The notes: generated by a model not told the origin, from the sequence alone. DNA of 64,000 nt from Minisyncoccia bacterium (GCA_038249055.1 JBBRWS010000003.1:24374-88373), one strand, 5' to 3'. Shown: positions 9,663 to 59,123, counted from the stretch's first letter. Program-made: numbers and translations.

Positions 9663-12600
9663 TTAATTTTGAGTTTGGCTATTTTTTTTTGTAATTACTC
9701 CAATTAAAATTATAATTGATAAAATTAGCAATAAAACAGAAGCTCCAGCCAAATAAAGACTTATGCCATCCATTAAACCTGGTTTTGCTACATTTATTGA
9801 GGCTTCAGCAATAGGAAGATCCTGAAAGGTTACAGCTTCAGCTGTTTTAGTAAATAAATACCCAGAACTTTTAGCTATAATATTACCGGTATTATTTACT
9901 GTTGCGGTGTAAACTGTATGATTACCATTCTCTAGTTCTTTATCTAATAAATACTCCCATTCACCATTATTATCTGCCTTAATAGTCACAATAATAGGGG
10001 TACTATAAATATACAAAGTAATGAAACTGTTTGGTAATGCTTGCCCTTTAATTATTATTTCTTTTTGTTCAGTTAATTTAACATCTTTTACCTTATAAGT
10101 AGGAACAACTGGAGCTTCAGATACTTCAGGCTGTTCTATTTCTACTTTAACTAACTCTGGGCTTTTAGGATTATAACCTAATAATATTTTTTCGGAGGCA
10201 TTAATACTTCTTCCTTCATAAGAAGATACGGGAGAAGGTTTTATTGGGTCAATATTATAAACATAGGTTGAATCATAGTCAGAAATTCCATCATTGTTTG
10301 TATCTTTATAAAGAAGGTCTCCCCCTTGTTCCTTTAATACTCCTGATTTATCTTCTACCGCAACAGTTAATAAATTGAATGCTTCATTAATATTTTCTGA
10401 GTTAACTTTATCTATTTGAGAAACAACACCTCCACCTCCTGCCATTCCTCTAAGATTTTCTATACCTTTATTGATTTCAATTTTTAAATTACTAATATCT
10501 TCCGGTGTAACAAGAGCTAAATTTAATAAACTCATTTCAACTTTATTTATAAGTTCATCTCTATATAAATAAACCTTTAATATATCAATTGTTAAATTAT
10601 TTTCCTTTATAATTTTAATTACATTTAAAGTACTACCGTTAATTATATTAATTAATTGCTCTTTTGTATTAACTATGGAGTTTCTAAGTTCGTCTACAGC
10701 AAAACTAATATCTTGAATATTTGTAATAATTTCATTTGTTGTCTCTGGTAATATAACTTTGGATATTTCATTTTGAATGAGTTTAATCGGATTTTCAATT
10801 ATTTCCTTTTGCTCTATTAGTGAAACTAAAGGCGTTGTTATGATATTGTCTTTATTTTCTTCAATATTCAATGCTGGAATAGATATTGTTTTTAAATCAG
10901 TAAAACCAGAACAAGTTATTGATGATGTTGTGGTTGTTTGTTTATAGCAGGCTTTAACGCGATAATAATAAGGTACTCCACGAGTAACATTAAAATCAGA
11001 GAACGAAGTAGCGTTTGAATTTGCAGAATAAATAACAACCGTAGATTTTGAATCAGAACTAAGTCTTCGTTCTATTATAAAATTTGTTTCATTATTTGAA
11101 TTATCTTCCCAATTAATTTTAATAGAAGGTGTAGTATTAGTAGATGTATTGTTTAATACTAAATTGGTTGGATCAGATATTTGTATAATATTTGTTACAG
11201 GAAGTGGAATTGTAATTTTTTCTAAATCTGCGTAATTAGAACAAACAGTTTTTATTGTTTCTGTTATTGTTCCTGTTGGTGGCGTGTAGCAAGCTTTAAC
11301 ACGATAATCATAAGACACTCCTGGCTTCGCATCATAATCAGTGAAATAATTTACATCTTTGTTTGTATTACCATAAGCAGTTGCGGAATATGTTGTTTCG
11401 CTATTTAATTTTCGCTCAACTGTAAACTCAGTTTCATTATCAGAAAGATCTTCCCATTTAAGTGATATAGATTTTGAGAGAGAATCTAAAGCTGAATATA
11501 ATTTCAAATTAGCTGGTGATGCAACTGCAACAATATTCGGAATAACAACCGGAATCGAAATTCCTTTTAATTCTGTATATCCTGAATAAATTGAGTAAAT
11601 ATTTCCTGATGTTGTTCCTGATGTTGGAGTATAACTAGCCTTTACCCTATAATCGTACGAAATTCCAGCTCTGGCATCATTATCAGTAAAGTAATTAACA
11701 TCTTTATCTGTACTACCATAAGCAGTAGCCGAATATGTTGTTTCGTTGCTTAATTTTCTTTCTATAATAAATTTAGTTTCATTATTGGAATTATCAATCC
11801 ATTTAAGTGGTATAGATTTTGAGAGAGAATCTAAAGTTGAATATAATTTTAAACCTGTGGGGGCGCTTACTGCTGTAACGTTTGGCGTTGTGGATGGAAT
11901 AGAAGTTCCTCTTAATTCAGTATACGCGGAACAAATTTTAGATGTGGTTCCTACTGTTGTAACCGCAGTTGAAGTATAGCAAGCCTTTACTTTATAATAA
12001 TAGGATGCTCCACGGGTAACCTCTAAATCAGTATATGAGGTTTCATTTGAATTTAAATAATAAGAGTTAATGGCTTTCGCACCGTCTATACTTGATGTTC
12101 TATCAATAACAAATTCAGTTTCATTATTAGAATAATCCTCCCATTTAAGTCCAATTGATGCTACCGTGGCGGTAGAAGTATTTTCTACTACTAAATTTTT
12201 AGGAGCAGATACTGTAATATTATTTAGAGATGGAATTGAAATCATAGATACACTAGTAAAACCGGAACAAAGATTTGATGAATATCCTACGTGACAAGCC
12301 TTCACTCGATAGTAATAAGAAACTCCACGATAAACTTGAAAGTCAGTATAATTATTAATTCCTGCATTTGTATAATAAGAAGTTGCAGTTGATGTTAAAT
12401 CATCACTTATTCTTCGTTCTATAATAAATTGCGTTTCGTTATCAGAATTATCAACCCATTTGAGTTCAATTGATGCCTTGAGGGGTGTTGAAATATTATT
12501 CAATTCTAATCCACTTGGGTCTTTAGGAGTATATAAATTTATATTTTCTGTTGTATTTGTTGTATTTGTTGCATCTGTTGTATTTATTGTATCAGTTGTA

Positions 12601-13133
12601 TTTGAAGTTTTAATAATAGCACCTTCAAATTTAGCATAGTCTGAGCAAACTGTTTCTACTCCTGCTGAAGTTCCAGACGTTGAAGATATTGTTGGTGAAT
12701 TTAATGTTGAAGATATTAAATCTACCTTTTCTGTTAGACACGCTTTTATTTGATAGTCATAAGAAAATCCTGTTCTAACATATTGATCATTAAAAAAATG
12801 AAAATCTTTCCCAATAAAAGCATTTGTTATCGGAACAAAAACTGTGTCTGTACTTAATTTTTTTTCAAGAATAAAATGGGTTTCTGTATCAGAATTATCA
12901 TCCCAGGTTAAATATATTGAAGATGGAGTAGAAGCTGGACTTGTAGATTGTTGTAAGTTTGTTGGAGCAAAAGGTGCAATAGCTGCGTAAGACACACCCC
13001 AAAGAACAATAATTATTGTTAAAAAAAAGATAAAACCTAAAACTAAAATAAACTTATTGTTTCTAGAAAACGTGTTTAATTTTAACCTTTTCATTGTATT
13101 ATTATACACTTTTAAATTAATTTTTAATATCAA
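9663..13133 (-). CDS. Large membrane-anchored surface protein with about 7 tandem fibronectin type III-like modules and C-terminal coiled-coil plus TM anchor
   Basis: 1156 aa; N-terminal signal anchor; repeated ~110-aa units each with LKWxDNSxNETxFxIERK...SYxYRVKAC signature; C-terminal LYLAGASVLLLILSIIILIGVI anchor. Confidence 0.8.
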   Translation of the reverse strand: MILKINLKVYNNTMKRLKLNTFSRNNKFILVLGFIFFLTIIIVLWGVSYAAIAPFAPTNLQQSTSPASTPSSIYLTWDDNSDTETHFILEKKLSTDTVFVPITNAFIGKDFHFFNDQYVRTGFSYDYQIKACLTEKVDLISSTLNSPTISSTSGTSAGVETVCSDYAKFEGAIIKTSNTTDTINTTDATNTTNTTENINLYTPKDPSGLELNNISTPLKASIELKWVDNSDNETQFIIERRISDDLTSTATSYYTNAGINNYTDFQVYRGVSYYYRVKACHVGYSSNLCSGFTSVSMISIPSLNNITVSAPKNLVVENTSTATVASIGLKWEDYSNNETEFVIDRTSSIDGAKAINSYYLNSNETSYTDLEVTRGASYYYKVKACYTSTAVTTVGTTSKICSAYTELRGTSIPSTTPNVTAVSAPTGLKLYSTLDSLSKSIPLKWIDNSNNETKFIIERKLSNETTYSATAYGSTDKDVNYFTDNDARAGISYDYRVKASYTPTSGTTSGNIYSIYSGYTELKGISIPVVIPNIVAVASPANLKLYSALDSLSKSISLKWEDLSDNETEFTVERKLNSETTYSATAYGNTNKDVNYFTDYDAKPGVSYDYRVKACYTPPTGTITETIKTVCSNYADLEKITIPLPVTNIIQISDPTNLVLNNTSTNTTPSIKINWEDNSNNETNFIIERRLSSDSKSTVVIYSANSNATSFSDFNVTRGVPYYYRVKACYKQTTTTSSITCSGFTDLKTISIPALNIEENKDNIITTPLVSLIEQKEIIENPIKLIQNEISKVILPETTNEIITNIQDISFAVDELRNSIVNTKEQLINIINGSTLNVIKIIKENNLTIDILKVYLYRDELINKVEMSLLNLALVTPEDISNLKIEINKGIENLRGMAGGGGVVSQIDKVNSENINEAFNLLTVAVEDKSGVLKEQGGDLLYKDTNNDGISDYDSTYVYNIDPIKPSPVSSYEGRSINASEKILLGYNPKSPELVKVEIEQPEVSEAPVVPTYKVKDVKLTEQKEIIIKGQALPNSFITLYIYSTPIIVTIKADNNGEWEYLLDKELENGNHTVYTATVNNTGNIIAKSSGYLFTKTAEAVTFQDLPIAEASINVAKPGLMDGISLYLAGASVLLLILSIIILIGVITKKNSQTQN

Positions 13134-27356: not shown

Positions 27357-28718
27357 CTATTTTTTTATAACCTTAAGAGTTTTTCCTGAGACATTTACAA
27401 AATATATTCCAGGTTTATGAGGCAGACCAATAACTGTTTTACCAGCGTTGCATTGTGTTTTTTGTATGACCCTAGAAGTGGAGTCTATAATAGTTAACAT
27501 TTCACCTTCCTTGGTATTTTCAATGTTTAAAATATCAATACAAGGATTGGGAAAAATTTTTAATTCAGAATTATTAATTTGATTAACCGCGGTATGAATA
27601 TCACCAGTGGTATTAATCAGAACTGATAAACCTGTATAACTATTAACAGAAACAATATCTGGTTTCCCATCATTATTTACGTCCGCGACCACAATTCCAT
27701 CTGGATCATTATTATTAGGTGAATTTGTATTAAATACAGTGACAACCTTATTAATAACTACCTGTACACGACCACTTGATATCATGACAATATCATCATA
27801 GCCGTCAGAATTAAGATCACCAACGGAAAGTGCCCCGGGGTTAACCTGATTATCAATATCAAAAGAGATATCAGAGTTAGCTCCCCATACACCAATTTTT
27901 CCAGTAACTGAATAAACTAATTCCTTTCTATTATCTGAACTAATATTTCCAACTACAATTGAAGATGGATTATTTTTATCCGGAATAATGTTTAGATTGG
28001 TCAACATTTCAATGCTTCTATCTTTTCTAAATTTATAAACAGAAACATAATTAAAACCGCCTTGACCATTCATTTTTATTACCGAATTAAAACTATCAGA
28101 CCCGAGCTTTGCAATCTCAATATCATCATACCCTGATTGTGTCGAGGGATAATAATAAGGTAAGGATAGACAACCGATACTATCACAATAATATGCAACA
28201 ATATTGGGTTGATTCCATAGAGAAACTACAATGTCATTTATTCCGTCATCGTTAATATCGCCAATTTTTACAGCATCTACTGTTTTCCCGGCATAAATAT
28301 TAATAGGATGTCCTAATTTACCAACAGTATTTTGATGATAAATAATAATCTCATCACCAGCACCTAATACAACATCACTAAGTCCATCATTATTAATATC
28401 GCCTGAGCTTATAGTGCTCACATCATATTTTTGATAATAAGGATAAACAGCTGATAGCTGTAGGGTATTGCTTGAATCCTGAAGATAAATAAATAATTTA
28501 AAATTAGTATTTACACTTGGATTACTAGCATAAGAACCGGTCGCAACAGCGACGTCTATCTTACCATCGTTATTAAAATCACCTGCCGTCAGGTGATCAG
28601 CTAATGTTCCATTTATGGGATAATTTTTTACCCCTGAAAATGTAACTTGCCCGCAAGCAATGTTACCGATAGAAAGAATACCAAATACAACAACTAGAGT
28701 AATCAGAATTTGTTTCAT
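27357..28718 (-). CDS. Secreted FG-GAP/VCBS-repeat beta-propeller protein with C-terminal T9SS-type (Por secretion tail-like) sorting domain, paralog 1
   Basis: Signal peptide; repeated DxNxDGxxD(I/V)V motifs (DFNNDGKIDVAV, DINNDGLSDVV, DINDDGINDIV...); C-terminus KIFPNPCIDILNIEN...IIDSTSRVI...GIYFVNVSGKTLKVIKK. Confidence 0.7.
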   Translation of the reverse strand: MKQILITLVVVFGILSIGNIACGQVTFSGVKNYPINGTLADHLTAGDFNNDGKIDVAVATGSYASNPSVNTNFKLFIYLQDSSNTLQLSAVYPYYQKYDVSTISSGDINNDGLSDVVLGAGDEIIIYHQNTVGKLGHPINIYAGKTVDAVKIGDINDDGINDIVVSLWNQPNIVAYYCDSIGCLSLPYYYPSTQSGYDDIEIAKLGSDSFNSVIKMNGQGGFNYVSVYKFRKDRSIEMLTNLNIIPDKNNPSSIVVGNISSDNRKELVYSVTGKIGVWGANSDISFDIDNQVNPGALSVGDLNSDGYDDIVMISSGRVQVVINKVVTVFNTNSPNNNDPDGIVVADVNNDGKPDIVSVNSYTGLSVLINTTGDIHTAVNQINNSELKIFPNPCIDILNIENTKEGEMLTIIDSTSRVIQKTQCNAGKTVIGLPHKPGIYFVNVSGKTLKVIKK

Positions 28719-28734
28719 AATTTTTATTATTAAT

Positions 28735-28880
28735 TTTTAGTTTATATTTATTTGAATTACTTTAAATTTCATATAGAAATACAAAGTAATTCAAATAAAT
28801 TACTGTCTAAAAATTATTTTATCAAAGAGCTAAGACTAACTTATATAGTAGCATAAATATAGAGATTTGTCAATCTATAT
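28735..28880 (-). promoter_or_regulatory. Conserved promoter + 5' leader hairpin module, copy B
   Basis: Minus-sense TTGACA-N17-TACTAT then TTTGAATTACTTT...AAAGTAATTCAAA hairpin ~33 nt before ATG. Confidence 0.5.
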
Positions 28881-28889
28881 TCTAATTTC

Positions 28890-28934
28890 ATAAAAAAATA
28901 AACCGTTATTCCAAGCAAATGGGATAACGGTTTA
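28890..28934 (-). terminator. Terminator of FG-GAP paralog 2
   Basis: AAACCGTTAT...ATAACGGTTT hairpin. Confidence 0.6.
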
Positions 28935-28952
28935 TCAAATAAATTTTCAAAG

Positions 28953-30335
28953 CTAATTCTTTACAACTTTGAATGTTTTACCCGATATATTTACAAAATA
29001 AATTCCAGGATAAAAACCTTCCATACTAACGACTGTTTTATCGTAATCAGTTTTAATCTTCTTTATTACTCTGGAAGTTGAGTCATAAATAGTCAAGATA
29101 TCCTTTCCGTTTGTATTATTAATGTTTACAATATTTTTACAAGGGTTAGGAAATACATTAAGCTCAGTGTCATTAATTTGATTTGTACCTGTAATAATAG
29201 TGGTATTGAGCATAATTGTTAAACCTGTATTACCATTACATGAAACAATGTCTAGTTTCCCATCACTATTTACATCCGTAATAGCTATCCCATCAGGTGA
29301 ATTAATATCTGGTGAATTCGTTGAGAATTTATATATCACCTTATTAACAATCACTTGCACAAAATTATTACTAATCATTACAATTTCATCGATTCCGTCG
29401 GAGTTTAAGTCTCCAGCAGCCAAGGCCCCACTATTATATGGAGTCTGTAAATCAAATGATATTTCAGGAGATGCTCCCCATACATTTATCATTCCATTTA
29501 CTGAATAAATAAGTTCATTCCTTTTGTCGGAAGTAACATTACCCATAACAATAGAGACGGGCATATTATTAACACTATTTGAAATGAGATCTAAATTGGT
29601 TTCAGTATTCAGACTTCTGTCTTTATTAAAATGATAAACAGTAAAAGATAATCTTCCTTTACTGTAGAGTCCTCCTTGACCATACATTTTAATTACAGAA
29701 TTAAAATTATCATCTCCAAGTCGAGCAATCTCAATATCACCATACAATGATGCTCCTGAAAAATACCAAACTGGATAAGCTAATTTGCCCATACTGTCAC
29801 CATAAAAGGCGGCAATGTTTGACTGTCTCCGAAGAGTAATAATGATATCGTTTATTCCATCATCATTTATGTCCCCAATTTTTAGAGCATCAGGTATTGC
29901 ACCACAATAGGTATAAACTGGTGAATTAAATTTACCGTTTACATTTTGGTAAAAAATACCAATTTCTGCTTCTACGGCAATGACAATATCACAGAGACCA
30001 TCATTATTCACGTCACCTGCACCTATTGCCCCCACGCCGTCGGTAGCATGACCATAAGTATAACTATCTGAAAGAATCAAACTGTTGTTCTTATCTTGTA
30101 GGTATACCATTACTTTATAGTTAGTATTGAGACCAGAATCAGTCGTATACGAACTTGTTGCTACAGCAACGTCCTTTTTACCATCATTATTAAAATCACC
30201 TGTTGTAAGGTGATTTGCTAATGTTCCCAAAATTGGGAAATTAGTAAAGGGAGAAAATGTAACTTGCCCGCAAGCGATGTTACTAAACAAAATAAAACCA
30301 AACACAACAAAAAAATTCACTACTAAATTTTTCAT
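28953..30335 (-). CDS. Secreted FG-GAP/VCBS-repeat protein with T9SS-type C-terminal domain, paralog 2
   Basis: Same architecture as 27357-28718, tandem paralog; C-terminus LNVFPNPCKNIVNINN...IYDSTSRVI...GIYFVNISGKTFKVVKN. Confidence 0.7.
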   Translation of the reverse strand: MKNLVVNFFVVFGFILFSNIACGQVTFSPFTNFPILGTLANHLTTGDFNNDGKKDVAVATSSYTTDSGLNTNYKVMVYLQDKNNSLILSDSYTYGHATDGVGAIGAGDVNNDGLCDIVIAVEAEIGIFYQNVNGKFNSPVYTYCGAIPDALKIGDINDDGINDIIITLRRQSNIAAFYGDSMGKLAYPVWYFSGASLYGDIEIARLGDDNFNSVIKMYGQGGLYSKGRLSFTVYHFNKDRSLNTETNLDLISNSVNNMPVSIVMGNVTSDKRNELIYSVNGMINVWGASPEISFDLQTPYNSGALAAGDLNSDGIDEIVMISNNFVQVIVNKVIYKFSTNSPDINSPDGIAITDVNSDGKLDIVSCNGNTGLTIMLNTTIITGTNQINDTELNVFPNPCKNIVNINNTNGKDILTIYDSTSRVIKKIKTDYDKTVVSMEGFYPGIYFVNISGKTFKVVKN

Positions 30336-47290: not shown

Positions 47291-48514
47291 TTAATGTAGT
47301 TTAGGAAATGAATTCCCTCTTTTTCTTCCACTACCTTTAAGAGAGGAAGCATGTTTCAGCGAATTTTGTCCAAATTTTTCTCTTATCTTATCTCCCACTT
47401 CTTCTATAATGTTTTTAGTTTCAGATTTATCAAATATGCCAAATAAATCCCTAGGTATATTTTCTCTTCTTAATAAATTTCGCAAAGTAATCCCAGTTGA
47501 ACGAATTTTTTCATCATTTTGTAACAGCTTATATAAAATAGGTTCAATAATATTAAGCATCTCACTTGGATTATTAGTATATAAAGGTAAATGACTCTCA
47601 CCAACACGGTGAATAAAATTAGAATTTTTTACAAAAAATGAAACTGAATTAGTCACCAGATTAAGTTCTCTTGCTCTTTCACATGCTCTTTCTATATTTT
47701 CTGAAAGTTCAGCAAATATTATTTTTGAATTGCAAGATGATGGCTTAAAAGTTGAAGTTGATTGAATTGATTTTTGATCTCTTCTGTCATGATTGGAATC
47801 AATTTCTAATAAAGATTTGCCTGAAAGTTCTTGTTTAAGATTAAATAATGGCAAGGGAAAATATTTTTCTATTGGTTCATCTGGATAGTGAACAAGATCA
47901 TAAGCGGTTTTCATTCCCATATCGTGCAGTCGTGGAACTGTCTGTTTGCCAATACCCCAAATGTCATCTATTTTTGTTTTCTTAAGTGCATTCTCTTCGT
48001 CCATTTCGTTTAAAAGTAAAACCATACCATCGGGTTTATCAAGCTTTGAAGCGGTCTTCGCGAGTGCTTTTGTTCTCCCAAGTCCAAAAGAATATGTTAC
48101 ACCAATTGTATTTTTAATTTCATCTTTGATGTCACTCACAAGTTTTTCTGGACTACCAGCATATTTTATATCTGAAGGTTTAACAATCATAAAACATTCA
48201 TCTATACTATATACTTCAACTTGCTCAAGGTACGATAAAAAAATATTATAAACATCATTGGAAATTTTATTATATAAATCAAAATGATGAGAAAGAATAA
48301 TAACTTTAGGGAATTGTTTTTTAATTTGGAATATTGGCATACCACGAGTAACACCAAGTTTTTTAGCTTCATAACTCATGGCTACAGCTATTCCCCTATC
48401 TTCTCCCACAACAACAGGCATCCCTTTATATTCAGGATGCTTCGATACTTCACACGAAACAAAGAAAGAATCTCCATCTGCATGAAGAAATAAATTGTCG
48501 GAATTATCAGACAT
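47291..48514 (-). CDS. dinB: Y-family DNA polymerase (DNA polymerase IV-like)
   Basis: LHADGDSFFVSCEV, SIDECF catalytic motifs. Confidence 0.8.
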   Translation of the reverse strand: MSDNSDNLFLHADGDSFFVSCEVSKHPEYKGMPVVVGEDRGIAVAMSYEAKKLGVTRGMPIFQIKKQFPKVIILSHHFDLYNKISNDVYNIFLSYLEQVEVYSIDECFMIVKPSDIKYAGSPEKLVSDIKDEIKNTIGVTYSFGLGRTKALAKTASKLDKPDGMVLLLNEMDEENALKKTKIDDIWGIGKQTVPRLHDMGMKTAYDLVHYPDEPIEKYFPLPLFNLKQELSGKSLLEIDSNHDRRDQKSIQSTSTFKPSSCNSKIIFAELSENIERACERARELNLVTNSVSFFVKNSNFIHRVGESHLPLYTNNPSEMLNIIEPILYKLLQNDEKIRSTGITLRNLLRRENIPRDLFGIFDKSETKNIIEEVGDKIREKFGQNSLKHASSLKGSGRKRGNSFPKLH

Positions 48515-53569: not shown

Positions 53570-54568
53570 TTAATACATTTTCAGTGAAAAAGGATAAGGA
53601 ATATAATTTTCAATATATTCTTCTAAAAAATCTGCCTTTTCTGGAGAATAAATATAATCCCTAGAATTATTAGATATATTATAATTTATATCCTTAACCA
53701 TCTTTCCATCAACTATAATCCCCGATAGAACATCAATTTTTTTACGGTGCAGAAAAAGACACAAATTTTTAGTTATTGGGAAAAATAGTTCAGTATGTGG
53801 GCCACCTAAACTTTTATAATCATAAGGAAAAGCAACCTTATCTTCTGGGACAAAGTAAACAGCTGGTGCATCGGATGTGATAAAATAATTAGGATCTTCA
53901 CATTGTATAATTTGAATAGTCATATCTGAGAGCACATTACTATACATAGTTAAATTTGTAAAAATATGCTTAATAAACAGATTTCTTGGTAAACTTACTT
54001 CAAAATTTCCATCCTCCATCATTTTTATATATTTTTTTGTTGCGCCGTCTGCTTGCTCTTCAGTCATATCTGGAAATTTCTTCTTAAGGTGATCTTTCAT
54101 TTCAGTAATTCTATTACTATTAGAAGATTCAGCCCAATTTTGAGCCTGAGCACTAGCTTTATATATTTCTTCCATCTCAATTTTACTATGCAAAGTTCTA
54201 CTAAGCATTGAGGCAATAAGGGTAATAATGTATTCTCTGTATTTATCAAATATCAACGTAGCATCAAAAAAATTATTTTCTACAAAAGATACGAAATCTT
54301 TATATTTGGATTCAAACTCTTCGCTGAAGAAATCTTCAAAGATGTTTTTATCTTCAAATTCATCGTCCTGGGGAATATATAAATTATTTTTTACGCCAAT
54401 GATATTTAATCCATCCTCTCCCTGAACTACCAGCACTCTATCAGATTTTTCAATGTTATTCTCGAAAAACTTTTTACCTTTTTTGTAAACAAATAATTGT
54501 TCCTCCTTATTCCAAAATTTTTTAAGATATACTTTGGGGATATAATGGTTACGGCTTTTAATTTCCAT
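53570..54568 (-). CDS. DUF4238 family protein
   Basis: N-terminal NHYIPKVYLKKF matches the HYxPxFYLxxF signature of DUF4238. Confidence 0.55.
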   Translation of the reverse strand: MEIKSRNHYIPKVYLKKFWNKEEQLFVYKKGKKFFENNIEKSDRVLVVQGEDGLNIIGVKNNLYIPQDDEFEDKNIFEDFFSEEFESKYKDFVSFVENNFFDATLIFDKYREYIITLIASMLSRTLHSKIEMEEIYKASAQAQNWAESSNSNRITEMKDHLKKKFPDMTEEQADGATKKYIKMMEDGNFEVSLPRNLFIKHIFTNLTMYSNVLSDMTIQIIQCEDPNYFITSDAPAVYFVPEDKVAFPYDYKSLGGPHTELFFPITKNLCLFLHRKKIDVLSGIIVDGKMVKDINYNISNNSRDYIYSPEKADFLEEYIENYIPYPFSLKMY

Positions 54569-55269: not shown

Positions 55270-56391
55270 TTATTTTTTAAATACATTCTCTCTGTGATAA
55301 GCTAAATATTTTTTGTGATCATCTTCAATTTTTGAAAGTTTCATTTCTTTATTTATTCCCAAAAAACCAAAATTTTCAGCACTTAATTTACTTGAAAATA
55401 TTATTTTACCAGCATCATCAAAAGAAATTAATCCAATATCAAACAATTTATCAATATTTGGAATGAGTAATAAACCATTATATTGATCAATTACCTCTTT
55501 AGTATCGCAATCACTCCACGGTTTTATATGTGATGCAACAAGGACCCTAAGGTCATCGCATCCTGTGACACAACATTTCCACCAATATTCAATCAGATAA
55601 TTTCTAAAAAGACCTTGCCCAATTCTCGCTTTAATTATAGTTTCTCTATCTTTTGATACCAATTCTTTGTAATTTCTAATCTTTTGTTCTATGTCTTTTT
55701 GAGGAATATTTAATTTAGCTAACTTATCTTCAATATCCGAAATTATCCAAACAAAAGAATGTGCATTAAGCAAAGAAACATCTTTTATCCCTTTAGTTAA
55801 TAACAACTCTCTAGTCTGATTTAATAAACTATTATAACTGCAATAATTATTCCAAGAGCATTGATGATTTAACTTAAAATCAATGACACCCAATTTACCA
55901 AAAGCAATATCAAAATTATTTGGACTAGTTGGCATATATTGAGCTTTATCTTTTATAAAAAATAGATATGCTAATAAGGGGTAATTTTTACCAAAATATT
56001 CAATAAAGATATTAAATGATTCCTCATCTGTTTTTACTCCAGTAAAGAAATCAAATAGACATTTTTCATAATCATTTATTTCTTTATCTTTAGCTTTATT
56101 TTCAAATTTTACAGTAAGCCTCCAGTCAACAAGATTGTTTTCGTTATTACTAAGTTTTATAGCAGAAAGAACAGATTGAAATATTTTACCTGTTCCAATA
56201 TCCTCAGTTTTCCAATTCCAAAAACCTAATATATTACGAGCTTTTTCATAAATTTCGTCTTTATAACCCTCGTTTCCCTCTGTAAATCTATTTGATGGAA
56301 AAGAAACAAAAGACGTTTTACTTTCATTCTCAACAAAAACCTTAAATAACTGGAAATATTTTTCAAAACAAAATTCATCAATTTTAAACAT
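55270..56391 (-). CDS. HNH nuclease (HNH_2-type C-terminal domain) fused to ~270-aa unknown N-terminal domain
   Basis: C-terminus RIGQGLFRNYLIEYWWKCCVTGCDDLRVLVASHIKPWSDC...NGLLLIPNIDKLFDIGLISFD. Confidence 0.65.
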   Translation of the reverse strand: MFKIDEFCFEKYFQLFKVFVENESKTSFVSFPSNRFTEGNEGYKDEIYEKARNILGFWNWKTEDIGTGKIFQSVLSAIKLSNNENNLVDWRLTVKFENKAKDKEINDYEKCLFDFFTGVKTDEESFNIFIEYFGKNYPLLAYLFFIKDKAQYMPTSPNNFDIAFGKLGVIDFKLNHQCSWNNYCSYNSLLNQTRELLLTKGIKDVSLLNAHSFVWIISDIEDKLAKLNIPQKDIEQKIRNYKELVSKDRETIIKARIGQGLFRNYLIEYWWKCCVTGCDDLRVLVASHIKPWSDCDTKEVIDQYNGLLLIPNIDKLFDIGLISFDDAGKIIFSSKLSAENFGFLGINKEMKLSKIEDDHKKYLAYHRENVFKK

Positions 56392-56412: not shown

Positions 56413-56844
56413 TTATAAACCGTGCTCCCTTAAACACCTATTGTATGTATTTTCACTTAATACCTTACTTACTTTTTTTGTTTCGGGGCTTGGATTTCTC
56501 TCTATCGTATTTGCACTTATTTCCTCACATTTATTCAGCTCAATTTTTTGTGTTTCAGAGGTATAATTTTCGGTATCTTTCATATATTGATAAAACTTAA
56601 TACTATAAATAGGATTACTACCTCTAAATGGTGCAGCTGGATATTTTAATTTGCACTGTTCAAATTCATTTGCATTTTGTTCGGCTTGTTCTTTTGTTAC
56701 TCCAACATCAGCTGGAATAATTGTTATCTGCTGTGAACAACTCTTTTTTATATTAGTTGGTCTTAATTGAAACCAATAAAAAGCACCTAAAATAACTATT
56801 AAAACTATAATAATTATTCCTTTGTATTCTTTAATTTTTTCCAT
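56413..56844 (-). CDS. Hypothetical membrane-anchored protein
   Basis: 143 aa, N-terminal TM, Cys-containing extracytoplasmic part. Confidence 0.45.
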   Translation of the reverse strand: MEKIKEYKGIIIIVLIVILGAFYWFQLRPTNIKKSCSQQITIIPADVGVTKEQAEQNANEFEQCKLKYPAAPFRGSNPIYSIKFYQYMKDTENYTSETQKIELNKCEEISANTIERNPSPETKKVSKVLSENTYNRCLREHGL

Positions 56845-56885
56845 ACTAATCTTATTCTACCACTTTTACCCCACAGTGCATATCA

Positions 56886-57467
56886 CTATAGTTTTTTAGG
56901 ACAACAAATATATTTAGTTGCTTGAAACCATTCCTCTGTAGCAATTTTTTTCCATTGCTTTATATAGGGGATATTAGTGTTATTAAGATCTGGGTCATCT
57001 ATGAATTTATCCATAAAATTTTCAGGGATAATTCCACAAAAATAATTATCGGTCATCATTTGAGATATTACTAAACCTAAGCAATTACTGAATAATTTTT
57101 TATCAAATTTAATATCTAGTCGTTCTAAAATATCCCAAGGCATCATAAATCTGTTCGTGCACCCAAACTCAAATATCATACCTTTATTGACCAACTTAAA
57201 TTCCTCAAACTTTTCACTAAAATAATGAAAAACTGTCATTAAAAATGCCGTGTGAATAGCCATAAAATAAATAAAGTGTTTTTTCTTAAGGAGATAATGA
57301 TTATTCTCTTTGAGGAGTTGTAAATCATCAACGTTGCGTGTATTGTTTTCTTTATCATTGCAGTAATTAGGATATACACAAGCCTGCTTAAAAATTTCTA
57401 AATCTTTAGGATATTGAATATGGTAATAATCATAAAGAGAATTAAATTGCTCTGTATCATTTTCCAT
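56886..57467 (-). CDS. Hypothetical protein
   Basis: 193 aa. Confidence 0.45.
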   Translation of the reverse strand: MENDTEQFNSLYDYYHIQYPKDLEIFKQACVYPNYCNDKENNTRNVDDLQLLKENNHYLLKKKHFIYFMAIHTAFLMTVFHYFSEKFEEFKLVNKGMIFEFGCTNRFMMPWDILERLDIKFDKKLFSNCLGLVISQMMTDNYFCGIIPENFMDKFIDDPDLNNTNIPYIKQWKKIATEEWFQATKYICCPKKL

Positions 57468-57472
57468 AGAAT

Positions 57473-58072
57473 TTAATGAAATAGAAACTTTCTATTATTA
57501 AAATAAATCCAATTAGGTAATACCCATATTAGACCAAACAAAATAATAGTAATAATAAACATTGTGACATCTAATTTTGATAATGCAAGTATAATTGTTT
57601 CAAATATTAAAACAAAGAAATTCATTTCCCAAGCCCATAATTTTCTCTTTTTCAATCCCCAAAAAAGGACTCCTGAAATTACTATTTGCAACACAGACAC
57701 AACTATCCAAATTACATTACTGTGTAAATCTATAAGAACGAGTAGATTTAATATACCTAAAATAACGGATAATGGTAATCTAATATAAACATAAAAATTA
57801 AACCAGCCAAGGTTTTTACTGCTTACTCTTTTTGGGTGATTAACTGAATTTATTTTTTTTTCAATTTTACTTACTATTCTTTCTACTGCATAGTCCATTT
57901 GCCAATCCTCGTTTATATAATTAGCTTTTTCTATTTTTTCTCTAATTAAATTTTGAAGTTCCTTTTCAGGAATATTTTTTAAATTTATCCCCTCAAAGGA
58001 AACAATATCATTAAAAATAATATCCTCTATATTTGCATCATTATTTTGTTTATTTTCTATTGAATTATTCAT
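57473..58072 (-). CDS. Hypothetical protein with soluble N-domain and C-terminal 4-TM bundle
   Basis: 199 aa. Confidence 0.45.
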   Translation of the reverse strand: MNNSIENKQNNDANIEDIIFNDIVSFEGINLKNIPEKELQNLIREKIEKANYINEDWQMDYAVERIVSKIEKKINSVNHPKRVSSKNLGWFNFYVYIRLPLSVILGILNLLVLIDLHSNVIWIVVSVLQIVISGVLFWGLKKRKLWAWEMNFFVLIFETIILALSKLDVTMFIITIILFGLIWVLPNWIYFNNRKFLFH

Positions 58073-58091
58073 ATCTAAAAATCAATTAACC

Positions 58092-58475
58092 CTATAAAGG
58101 GAAAATATTAAAAATTATAATCAAAGCCCAGATAAAACCTGTAATAGTTGTTGATATAATTCCTATCATTCGTCCTTTCTCTGCACCTCCTGAGGTCTTT
58201 TTGATTGATTTAATACCCATAAATAATGCAAGAACTAAGAATAATATACTCAAAACAATAGACCCCCAATATATTAAATCATTGAAACTAAAATACCAAT
58301 TACCTCCACCAATTTTAAACATAAACTGATCAAATCTAAAAACAAAAGTATTTGAGTAGTCAATCTTATCAAACAAATTGGTAAAAGGCTCACTAGATAA
58401 ATATGCTAAAACCAAAGCACTAATTGAGTAGAGAGATTCTTTATTCCACTTTTTTATATTTAGATTATTCTCCAT
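58092..58475 (-). CDS. Small membrane protein
   Basis: 127 aa, 3 TM. Confidence 0.45.
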   Translation of the reverse strand: MENNLNIKKWNKESLYSISALVLAYLSSEPFTNLFDKIDYSNTFVFRFDQFMFKIGGGNWYFSFNDLIYWGSIVLSILFLVLALFMGIKSIKKTSGGAEKGRMIGIISTTITGFIWALIIIFNIFPL

Positions 58476-58688
58476 ATAGCTAGTATACTATCTTGTAGTA
58501 AAATTTAATACTATTATTAAGCCATTTGATCTATCTGAGCCAAGTCCATCTCCAGATTCAGCAAGCACTGTTGCTCTGTCATATCCGGATATTTCTCTTG
58601 TAATTTCTTAACTGAGGCCCACAGTATCTTTGGTGGTAGTTTCGCTAATGTCGGATATTGATTTTTATCTAATAATTTTTCTTCCATA

Positions 58689-59123
58689 TTACTTATTGTG
58701 TTTATTTATTGCCCTAATTATTTTGTCTTGTTCCTCTTGATATAATCCATCTTTACCATATATATAAATATTTTTTCCTGTAGATGGACGATGTAGTATA
58801 AACGGACCAATCCATTCATCTTTATTTTTTTCTAATTTATCAAATATCATTTTTGCAGATTCACTTTCAAGTATTTGCCAAATATTATCTCTTTCCTTAA
58901 ATACATCATAAAATTCTTCAGGTTGTTTTTTAACCATTTTCCAAAAAATATTTGATCTTCTCCAAGAAGAGTAATTATATAAAAATAGTAATGTCCATTT
59001 AATAAAAAGATACAAGCCAATGATTGTGAGTATTAAAAATAACCACTTGGATTTAATAACAAAATATATGCTTAATACAAGAAGTGAAATATCTGCTATT
59101 AAAAATAGTAAAATTATAATCAT
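58689..59123 (-). CDS. Membrane protein (2 TM + cytoplasmic domain); start trimmed to internal Met
   Basis: ORF track starts at 59213 but the first 30 codons are translated from the GC-rich structured element; MIIILLFLIADIS start at 59123 is far more plausible. Confidence 0.5.
   Translation of the reverse strand: MIIILLFLIADISLLVLSIYFVIKSKWLFLILTIIGLYLFIKWTLLFLYNYSSWRRSNIFWKMVKKQPEEFYDVFKERDNIWQILESESAKMIFDKLEKNKDEWIGPFILHRPSTGKNIYIYGKDGLYQEEQDKIIRAINKHNK

Follow-up and report, generated by a model that had tools for sequence, protein, structure and literature searches.

The stretch analyzed here, referred to below as the window, is 64,000 nucleotides of DNA from a Minisyncoccia bacterium (GCA_038249055.1, JBBRWS010000003.1:24374-88373), and its gene of interest encodes a two-domain nuclease with a C-terminal HNH module (Table 1). 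A first-pass annotation, made from the sequence alone, had placed the open reading frame (ORF) at 55270..56391, and our analysis returns exactly the same call, on the minus strand with a product of 373 amino acids. An identical protein (P0001) is encoded on an independent Logan contig, where it has the same neighbors, and database searches recovered 2281 homologs, mostly 370-380 residues in length, at 99% coverage. The closest named homolog, with 62% identity, comes from a Patescibacteria metagenome-assembled genome, and full-length relatives are found in Spirochaetota, Desulfobacterota, Cyanobacteria, Bacteroidota, Gammaproteobacteria, Firmicutes, and Patescibacteria; such patchiness is the pattern of a horizontally spread gene. 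An AlphaFold2 model of the full protein built on the family alignment has a predicted local distance difference test score (pLDDT) of 94.0 and a predicted template modeling (TM) score of 0.87. Scans for promoters and terminators returned counts at chance level and are uninformative.

Table 1. Coordinates of the HNH nuclease gene, of the parts of its product, and of the upstream HsdR gene.
Feature	Position in window	Strand	Basis
Complete gene, 373-residue two-domain nuclease (putative N-terminal reader, linker, HNH) with stop codon	55270..56391	-	ORF with ATG start
Residues 1-230, all-alpha N-terminal domain, putative modified-base reader	55702..56391	-	no Pfam family
Residues 231-256, helical linker (helices 232-242 and 246-256)	55624..55701	-	predicted secondary structure, VcaM4I alignment
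Residues 257-373 with stop codon, HNH_2 nuclease domain	55270..55623	-	homology
Residues 273-325, beta-beta-alpha-metal core, the Pfam HNH_2 match	55417..55575	-	profile match, model
HsdR, 1043 residues	59744-62875	-	type I restriction-modification

The nuclease is the part of the protein that is recognized by existing profiles. The Pfam HNH_2 family (PF13391) is matched over its entire length (profile positions 1-66 of 66, E = 3e-11, 43.5 bits against a cutoff of 21), and the modeled core contains strands at residues 285-288 and 306-309 and a helix at 311-318. The HNH_2 motifs listed in the first-pass annotation are all present, and they are invariant or nearly so in a 55-sequence alignment of full-length homologs (R256, G258-Q259-G260, F262-R263, C273...C278, H288-x-x-P291, N305-G306-L-L308-L309, and F317-D318). 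The presence of the HNH_2 module thus stands, while its proposed length of 100 residues does not, as homology to VcaM4I covers residues 232-373, or about 140 residues. The structure of VcaM4I (6YEX) was the sole match to the protein in a phmmer search of PDB sequences (98 bits, E = 3.9e-27), with chain residues 168-308 aligned to the query at an ungapped offset of +64. VcaM4I is an EVE-HNH endonuclease that depends on 5-methylcytosine or 5-hydroxymethylcytosine, and its key HNH residues are H224, N241, D250, and D254 (PMC7897488). At the observed offset these correspond to H288, N305, D314, and D318, all four of which are invariant in the 55-sequence alignment; H288 is predicted to act as the general base and N305 to play a structural role, with D314 and D318 forming the metal site. 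Because the four VcaM4I catalytic residues are invariant, the nuclease is predicted to be active, and the C-terminal 140 residues constitute a catalytically intact HNH of the VcaM4I/TagI subfamily.

In VcaM4I, dimerization occurs through the HNH domains, an inter-domain helix (residues 148-178) auto-inhibits the nuclease, and the HNH module behaves as a non-specific toxic nuclease once released from this linker (PMC7897488). Just the last ~11 residues of this helix fall inside the alignment with the window protein, and for that reason auto-inhibition by its linker is a property that we infer. In a genome scan most relatives align only over residues ~232-373, indicating that the linker and HNH form a cassette that has been joined to varied N-terminal domains; two low-scoring NCBIfam matches, one to a phosphorothioate-dependent restriction HNH and the other to the MAG4270 putative restriction endonuclease family, agree with this cassette reading. 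The solved close relatives of the HNH module all belong to modification-dependent enzymes. Two PADLOC models labeled "Type II restriction enzyme" also match the HNH part (PDLC03529, 7.5e-18; PDLC03546, 1.7e-16), as does, at 33.5 bits and therefore under its cutoff of 53, the NCBIfam model NF045952 for the MAG4270 family, which pairs residues 162-365 with profile positions 151-364.

The N-terminal domain had been described as extending over residues 1-270, but the domain model and a search conducted with residues 1-230 place its end near residue 230. A Pfam scan of this domain alone gave no match even at E = 10, NCBIfam and PADLOC scans of the protein recognized the nuclease part alone and nothing in residues 1-230, and an hmmsearch of PDB sequences with a 28-sequence profile of the domain found nothing credible, glycosylases included. 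A serine hydroxymethyltransferase match from the PDB profile search was dismissed (E = 0.44). The 373-residue protein contains no match to the EVE family PF01878 or to any other PUA-type reader, and its N-terminal domain is predicted to be all-alpha: a model of the domain alone (pLDDT 95.6) has twelve helices and no strands. The domain is conserved as strongly as the nuclease, and in 247 diverse homologs Y43, K44, P154, Y183, and H211 are invariant while E41, W60, G66, G68, N86, E109, Y137, W180, N182, and F213 are conserved in at least 98%. No aspartate in the domain is invariant in this set (D148 in 85%, D161 in 90%, and D209 in 84%). Position 161, which follows a proline-rich loop ("YLPIAPxxFD161"), is acidic (D or E) in 98% of the homologs; position 209 is asparagine in the window protein and its closest relatives. 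The N-terminal 230 residues are thus a conserved, independently folding, all-helical module.

The distribution of this module is the strongest evidence on its function. An exhaustive phmmer search with residues 1-230 alone against 1.84 billion cluster representatives (clusters at 50% identity) returned 710 representatives at E <= 1e-3, 123 of them at E <= 1e-30, in proteins of 229-759 residues in which the position of the domain varies. When 77 members with unusual lengths were scanned against Pfam, the partner modules were NOV_C/DUF3883 in 49, HNH_2 in 14, and classical HNH (PF01844) in seven, with single members carrying MrcB_N and AAA+ modules, DUF3427, or EVE. YenY4I and McaZI, two characterized modification-dependent enzymes, have DUF3883 as their PD-(D/E)XK catalytic domain (PMC6765204). 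In the McrB-like member (P0193), the domain occupies residues 8-220 and is followed by MrcB_N and then by the AAA+ module, and a gene 2 bp downstream encodes DUF2357 and PDDEXK_7, which a census of McrBC systems gives as McrC signatures (PMC11090510). The domain therefore heads the McrB subunit of a genuine McrBC system, the position at which McrB homologs bear their DNA-modification readers. In four further relatives of 542-560 residues (P0028, P0030, P0096, and P0105), an EVE domain precedes the whole unit of N-terminal domain and HNH_2. These four proteins carry two putative readers in tandem, and in them D161 is replaced by E, G, or K. Thus the module has been swapped among four effector types and paired with three modified-DNA readers, which supports the view that it behaves like a type IV sensor. 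Several of the NOV_C-bearing relatives (P0132, P0135, P0147, P0154, and others) match the PADLOC models for PD-T4-1, PDC-S36, and TmtA (Tiamat), and the matches run essentially through the nuclease half, which suggests that these three systems have a common effector but differing sensors.

Taken together, these data indicate that the gene probably encodes a stand-alone, type IV-like (modification-dependent) restriction endonuclease, a bacterial defense enzyme that would cut phage DNA bearing chemical modifications. The protein shows several type IV traits, namely a separate reader domain, a reader that is also common to McrBC effectors, and no conserved methyltransferase: in the 11 loci that we examined, which represent 10 distinct contexts as two of them (L004 and L006) are in synteny, no neighboring gene is conserved, a methyltransferase included. 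The HNH gene is therefore a stand-alone unit. The first-pass annotation had proposed a modification-dependent or phage-triggered HNH_2 nuclease with an N-terminal sensor, and this proposal gains support from the VcaM4I-type HNH, the shuffling of modules, and the absence of a methyltransferase partner. Given its homology to VcaM4I, the protein would dimerize through its HNH domains and be held inactive by the linker region, while the N-terminal domain would scan incoming DNA and bind a non-canonical base. This base is probably flipped out into a pocket, as the modeled likeness to Ogg2-type HhH-GPD proteins (named for the helix-hairpin-helix, HhH) would imply, with Y43, K44, W60, N86, Y137, W180, N182, Y183, H211, F213, and W215 as candidate pocket residues. 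Once the base is bound, the HNH dimer would be freed and would break both DNA strands in the vicinity. The host genome would be spared for want of the modification, and thus no methyltransferase partner would be needed. By analogy to END-Mag, with its Ogg-like sensor, and to the HhH "Dag" glycosylases, a 7-deazaguanine derivative or another modified purine is a speculative candidate for the recognized base.

A structure search with the model of the N-terminal domain returned as its best fold match the Ogg-type glycosylase 3N0U (TM1821), at 8% identity, and the only other structures aligning over at least 120 residues were Mag1, EndoIII, Qng1, and hOGG1. In a Foldseek search, mouse OGG1 appeared at rank 7 and MUTYH at rank 20, neither of them significant. 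We also compared the profile of the 247 N-terminal domain sequences by hhalign to an Ogg2 set of 124 sequences, comprising the PDB sequences and 120 collected homologs, after an earlier round that used the four PDB Ogg2 sequences. The larger comparison gave a local match of 27 columns (3.8% probability, P = 0.011) in which "g..dVsLLDAHSFxW" of the N-terminal domain is set against "G..dvAILDkHIL" of Ogg2, the segment that holds the catalytic aspartate; in global mode hhalign found nothing between the N-terminal domain and Ogg2. The extended hhalign alignment maps G134xxY137 to GHRF/Y and D209-x-H211 to D147-x-H149, and a reading by helix order yields another, colinear mapping with the hairpin at G134. 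As these hairpin mappings compete, we make no claim on pocket or catalytic residues. A relationship of the N-terminal domain to the glycosylase fold appears somewhat better than an even proposition. That the domain is a previously unrecognized, highly divergent HhH-GPD branch, widely recruited in many phyla as a base-flipping reader of hypermodified phage bases on HNH, PD-(D/E)XK, and McrBC effectors, with an aspartate-containing majority that may still excise bases before the cut, is a narrower proposal that we consider possible but doubtful.

Several observations weigh against the type IV-like reading and its glycosylase component. The dependence on modification is drawn from the architecture of the protein alone. 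The Foldseek search of the PDB with the domain-only model does place 3N0U first, but the match is not significant (E = 1.2, TM 0.35), and all-alpha domains are prone to spurious fold matches. The Pfam families HhH-GPD, Ogg2 (PF22175), and OGG-like (PF21790) are not matched by the N-terminal domain, and the hhalign comparisons to the Ogg2 profile reached probabilities of 2-4% across both rounds, which is not significant. Three segments compete as the candidate helix-hairpin-helix, at G66-x-G68 ("DIG66xG68", 98%), G134 (91%), and G168; in the 247 homologs no lysine is conserved after any of them, and the candidate acidic residues D161 and D209 are not invariant. Finally, three loci (L002, L004, and L006, the last two being one context) are plain chromosomal regions without obvious defense genes.

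The placement of the gene in an island anchored by restriction-modification (R-M) genes, as the first-pass annotation described it, is correct: ~3.4 kb upstream there is a type I HsdM-HsdR system encoded on the same strand. In the window (59744-63956, minus strand) and at L001 1290-6648, HsdR is preceded by a 739-residue HsdM, in which the ~250 residues past the N6_Mtase domain match no family. A separate HsdS gene is seen neither between nor after these genes, and M and S may thus be fused in one subunit. The interval from HsdR to the HNH gene holds seven small ORFs on the same strand (56413-59738, minus strand; 113, 82, 56, 127, 199, 193, and 143 residues), none of which has a significant Pfam, NCBIfam, or PADLOC match. 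From their translations, the 199- and 127-residue products and the N-terminus of the 143-residue product have the look of membrane proteins. Downstream of the HNH gene are genes for a TPR protein and a DUF4238 protein. The latter (53570-54568, minus strand; Pfam E = 9.7e-27), two genes downstream, has a weak match to the PADLOC candidate-defense model "DUF4238-Pers" (E = 6.4e-5) and may represent a further defense gene of the island. The TPR protein and the small proteins on which the first-pass annotation had remarked are not conserved partners across the 11 loci. A multi-gene system was considered and rejected, as the upstream 143-residue gene and the downstream TPR and DUF4238 genes adjoin no homolog examined.

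At other loci the gene keeps varied company. A second locus is a type I R-M island that also contains YgjP, a resolvase, and a WYL protein. One homolog directly abuts the operon of a type I-B CRISPR-Cas system, and others adjoin an integrase and a ParB-methyltransferase; a HinfI-type R-M pair, together with a caspase-like peptidase and with TIR (ThsB-like) and Fic proteins; or a helicase-DUF559 protein with recombinases. An EVE-fused homolog (L005 6001-7629) is flanked by two integrase genes and has a UvrD helicase and a C5 methyltransferase in its vicinity. Overall, R-M, CRISPR-Cas, TIR, integrase, or recombinase genes are present in seven of the 10 contexts.

These data also bear on other explanations of the protein. 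Instead of a modified base, the N-terminal domain could sense a protein of the phage, a DNA end or structure, or a nucleotide signal and release a non-specific HNH, making the protein an abortive-infection toxin. This would suit a domain without demonstrable sequence homology to DNA-binding families, the non-specific toxicity of the VcaM4I HNH when off its linker, and the defense-island contexts, and the NOV_C relatives match the PADLOC systems PD-T4-1, PDC-S36, and TmtA, though in the nuclease half only. We nevertheless consider it unlikely: the domain of P0193 sits at the McrB reader position with mcrC next to it, the tandem partners EVE, DUF3427, and MrcB_N are all DNA readers, and every solved close relative of the HNH module is modification-dependent. 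A different possibility is that the domain is an active, highly diverged HhH-GPD glycosylase that removes a modified phage base, after which HNH cuts at the resulting abasic site or close by. The structure that best matches the fold is an active glycosylase/lyase, the proline-rich loop and acidic residue of "YLPIAPxxFD161" are present, "LLD209-A-H211" resembles the Ogg2 catalytic "IID-R-H", and stand-alone HhH glycosylases (Dag proteins) and Brig1 act in phage defense. Such a mechanism is nonetheless quite unlikely, as the domain contains no invariant aspartate, D161 is lost in the EVE-fused relatives, and the window protein and its closest relatives carry N209. In HhH-GPD enzymes the exchange of the catalytic aspartate for asparagine is the classic inactivating substitution that leaves binding intact, which bears on N209 only if the mapping is right. 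The published EndoIII/Ogg-like sensors that are fused to nucleases also lack catalytic residues (PMC12191111).

A type II-like enzyme would cut unmodified DNA, with the N-terminal domain acting in sequence recognition and a methyltransferase, either HsdM or an unlinked one, protecting the host. Although the PADLOC "Type II restriction enzyme" models PDLC03529 and PDLC03546 match the HNH part, these matches span the nuclease alone; an R-M system is located 3.4 kb upstream and one homolog adjoins the HinfI-type R-M pair, but the methyltransferases near the gene are already paired with nucleases of their own (HsdR and HinfI). A cognate methyltransferase was rejected, as none is a conserved neighbor across the 11 loci, and shuffling with McrB, EVE, and DUF3427 is atypical of type II recognition domains, leaving this explanation very improbable. 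The least credible of those considered is a housekeeping repair enzyme in which a glycosylase-like lesion reader is coupled to an HNH nickase acting on damaged host DNA. The resemblance of the fold to the 8-oxoguanine, 3-methyladenine, and EndoIII repair glycosylases would fit this idea, as would the same chromosomal position of the gene in two related genomes. Against it are the patchy occurrence across phyla, the variable neighbors that include integrases, recombinases, R-M, and CRISPR-Cas, the lack of sequence-level membership in any repair family, and a nuclease module that belongs to the restriction-enzyme HNH_2 subfamily. The first-pass annotation had held that a match of the N-terminal domain to a housekeeping repair family with conserved chromosomal context would speak against its proposal; this is not what we find, as the glycosylase likeness is remote, the gene is patchy, and its contexts are variable.

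What defines a type IV restriction enzyme is its reader domain; every newly described reader has given insight into the phage DNA modifications that are important in nature and has doubled as a reagent to map them. The family described here is large and annotated as just "HNH endonuclease" or "hypothetical protein", and its common ~230-residue module, for which there is no Pfam, NCBIfam, or PADLOC model, occupies precisely the place taken by modification readers in HNH, DUF3883, and McrBC systems. Were the module derived from a glycosylase, the END nuclease concept of 2025 would come to include HNH effectors and a much broader set of phyla, lending weight to the notion that anti-phage sensors arise repeatedly from the folds of repair glycosylases. 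Should the divergent HhH-GPD proposal be true, the module would be a new sensor family, possibly with a new specificity (7-deazaguanine or other modified purines) usable for detection; should the fold link be wrong, the domain remains an uncharacterized type IV sensor that deserves a name. In practical terms, the gain would come from identifying the modification it recognizes. The concept of a glycosylase-like sensor is already known from recent precedent, even though the domain family itself is unannotated and widespread. A literature search found no paper describing the combination of this N-terminal domain with HNH.

Elsewhere in the window, a gene for a Y-family (ImpB/MucB/SamB) translesion DNA polymerase is located ~7 kb from the HNH gene (47291-48514, minus strand). 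Two FG-GAP repeat proteins with a type IX secretion C-terminal sorting domain (Por_Secre_tail) are encoded at 27357-30335 on the minus strand, which suggests a Bacteroidota-like host with a GC content of ~29%; the genome of the window was absent from the GTDB species representatives covered by our scan. The largest unannotated protein of the window is the 1156-residue product of a TTG-initiated ORF (9663-13133, minus strand) with no Pfam match at E <= 1e-5. A scan for a tRNA integration site found none in the 64-kb window.

A comparison of the protein with known systems shows likenesses to several of them along with some significant differences. It shares with the EVE-HNH enzymes of the VcaM4I/TspA15I group (PDB 6YEX; PMC7897488, PMC6765204) an HNH with the catalytic histidine, structural asparagine, and two metal-site aspartates, but its reader is an unrelated all-helical domain of ~230 residues rather than an EVE/PUA beta-barrel, and EVE is found only as an extra upstream domain in P0028, P0030, P0096, and P0105. 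Relatives of the N-terminal domain replace or accompany the readers DUF3427, MrcB_N/DUF3578, and EVE before the same effectors as in McrBC and in McaZI and YenY4I (DUF3427-DUF3883); in contrast to McrBC and the DUF3883 enzymes, the window protein uses HNH_2 and is, by its architecture, independent of nucleoside triphosphates. The NF045952 (MAG4270) family is of similar length (a 366-position profile) and its match runs from the last part of the N-terminal domain through the linker into HNH, but the first 150 profile positions are unmatched, making it at best a sister family that is itself uncharacterized. Unlike the Ogg2 glycosylase/apurinic-apyrimidinic lyases (TM1821, 3N0U; MjaOgg, 3FHF/3KNT; PF22175), which are stand-alone repair enzymes, the N-terminal domain is fused to nucleases in defense contexts and has neither a clear GIG hairpin with lysine nor an invariant aspartate.

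The protein also has a conceptual parallel in the END nucleases, which restrict phages with hypermodified DNA and join a nuclease to a sensor of that DNA, an EndoIII/Ogg-like domain devoid of catalytic activity, the reported fusions being to PLD, to a NucS-like PD-DExK (END-Mag), and to a McrB-like GTPase (PMC12191111, a 2025 preprint). END-Mag restricts phages with modified guanine, and its sensor resembles archaeal Ogg (PMC12191111), and stand-alone HhH glycosylases also defend against phages with modified guanines (10.1101/2025.10.29.685425, a preprint). Judged by the description in the END paper, the window protein likewise has a helical, possibly glycosylase-like putative sensor fused modularly to a nuclease without a methyltransferase, its N-terminal domain is also fused elsewhere to a PD-(D/E)XK nuclease and a McrB-like GTPase, and its best fold match is an Ogg-type glycosylase, as for END-Mag. 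In contrast to the END sensors, which HHpred can detect as EndoIII/OGG-like (PMC12191111), the N-terminal domain here has no significant Pfam, PDB-sequence, or hhalign match. Its effector, HNH, is not a reported END partner and appears in the END paper only in the general introduction, and its sensor is N-terminal whereas that of END-PaCF1 is C-terminal. Conceptually, then, the HNH protein matches the END nucleases but brings in a new effector, HNH, and carries its putative sensor N-terminally.

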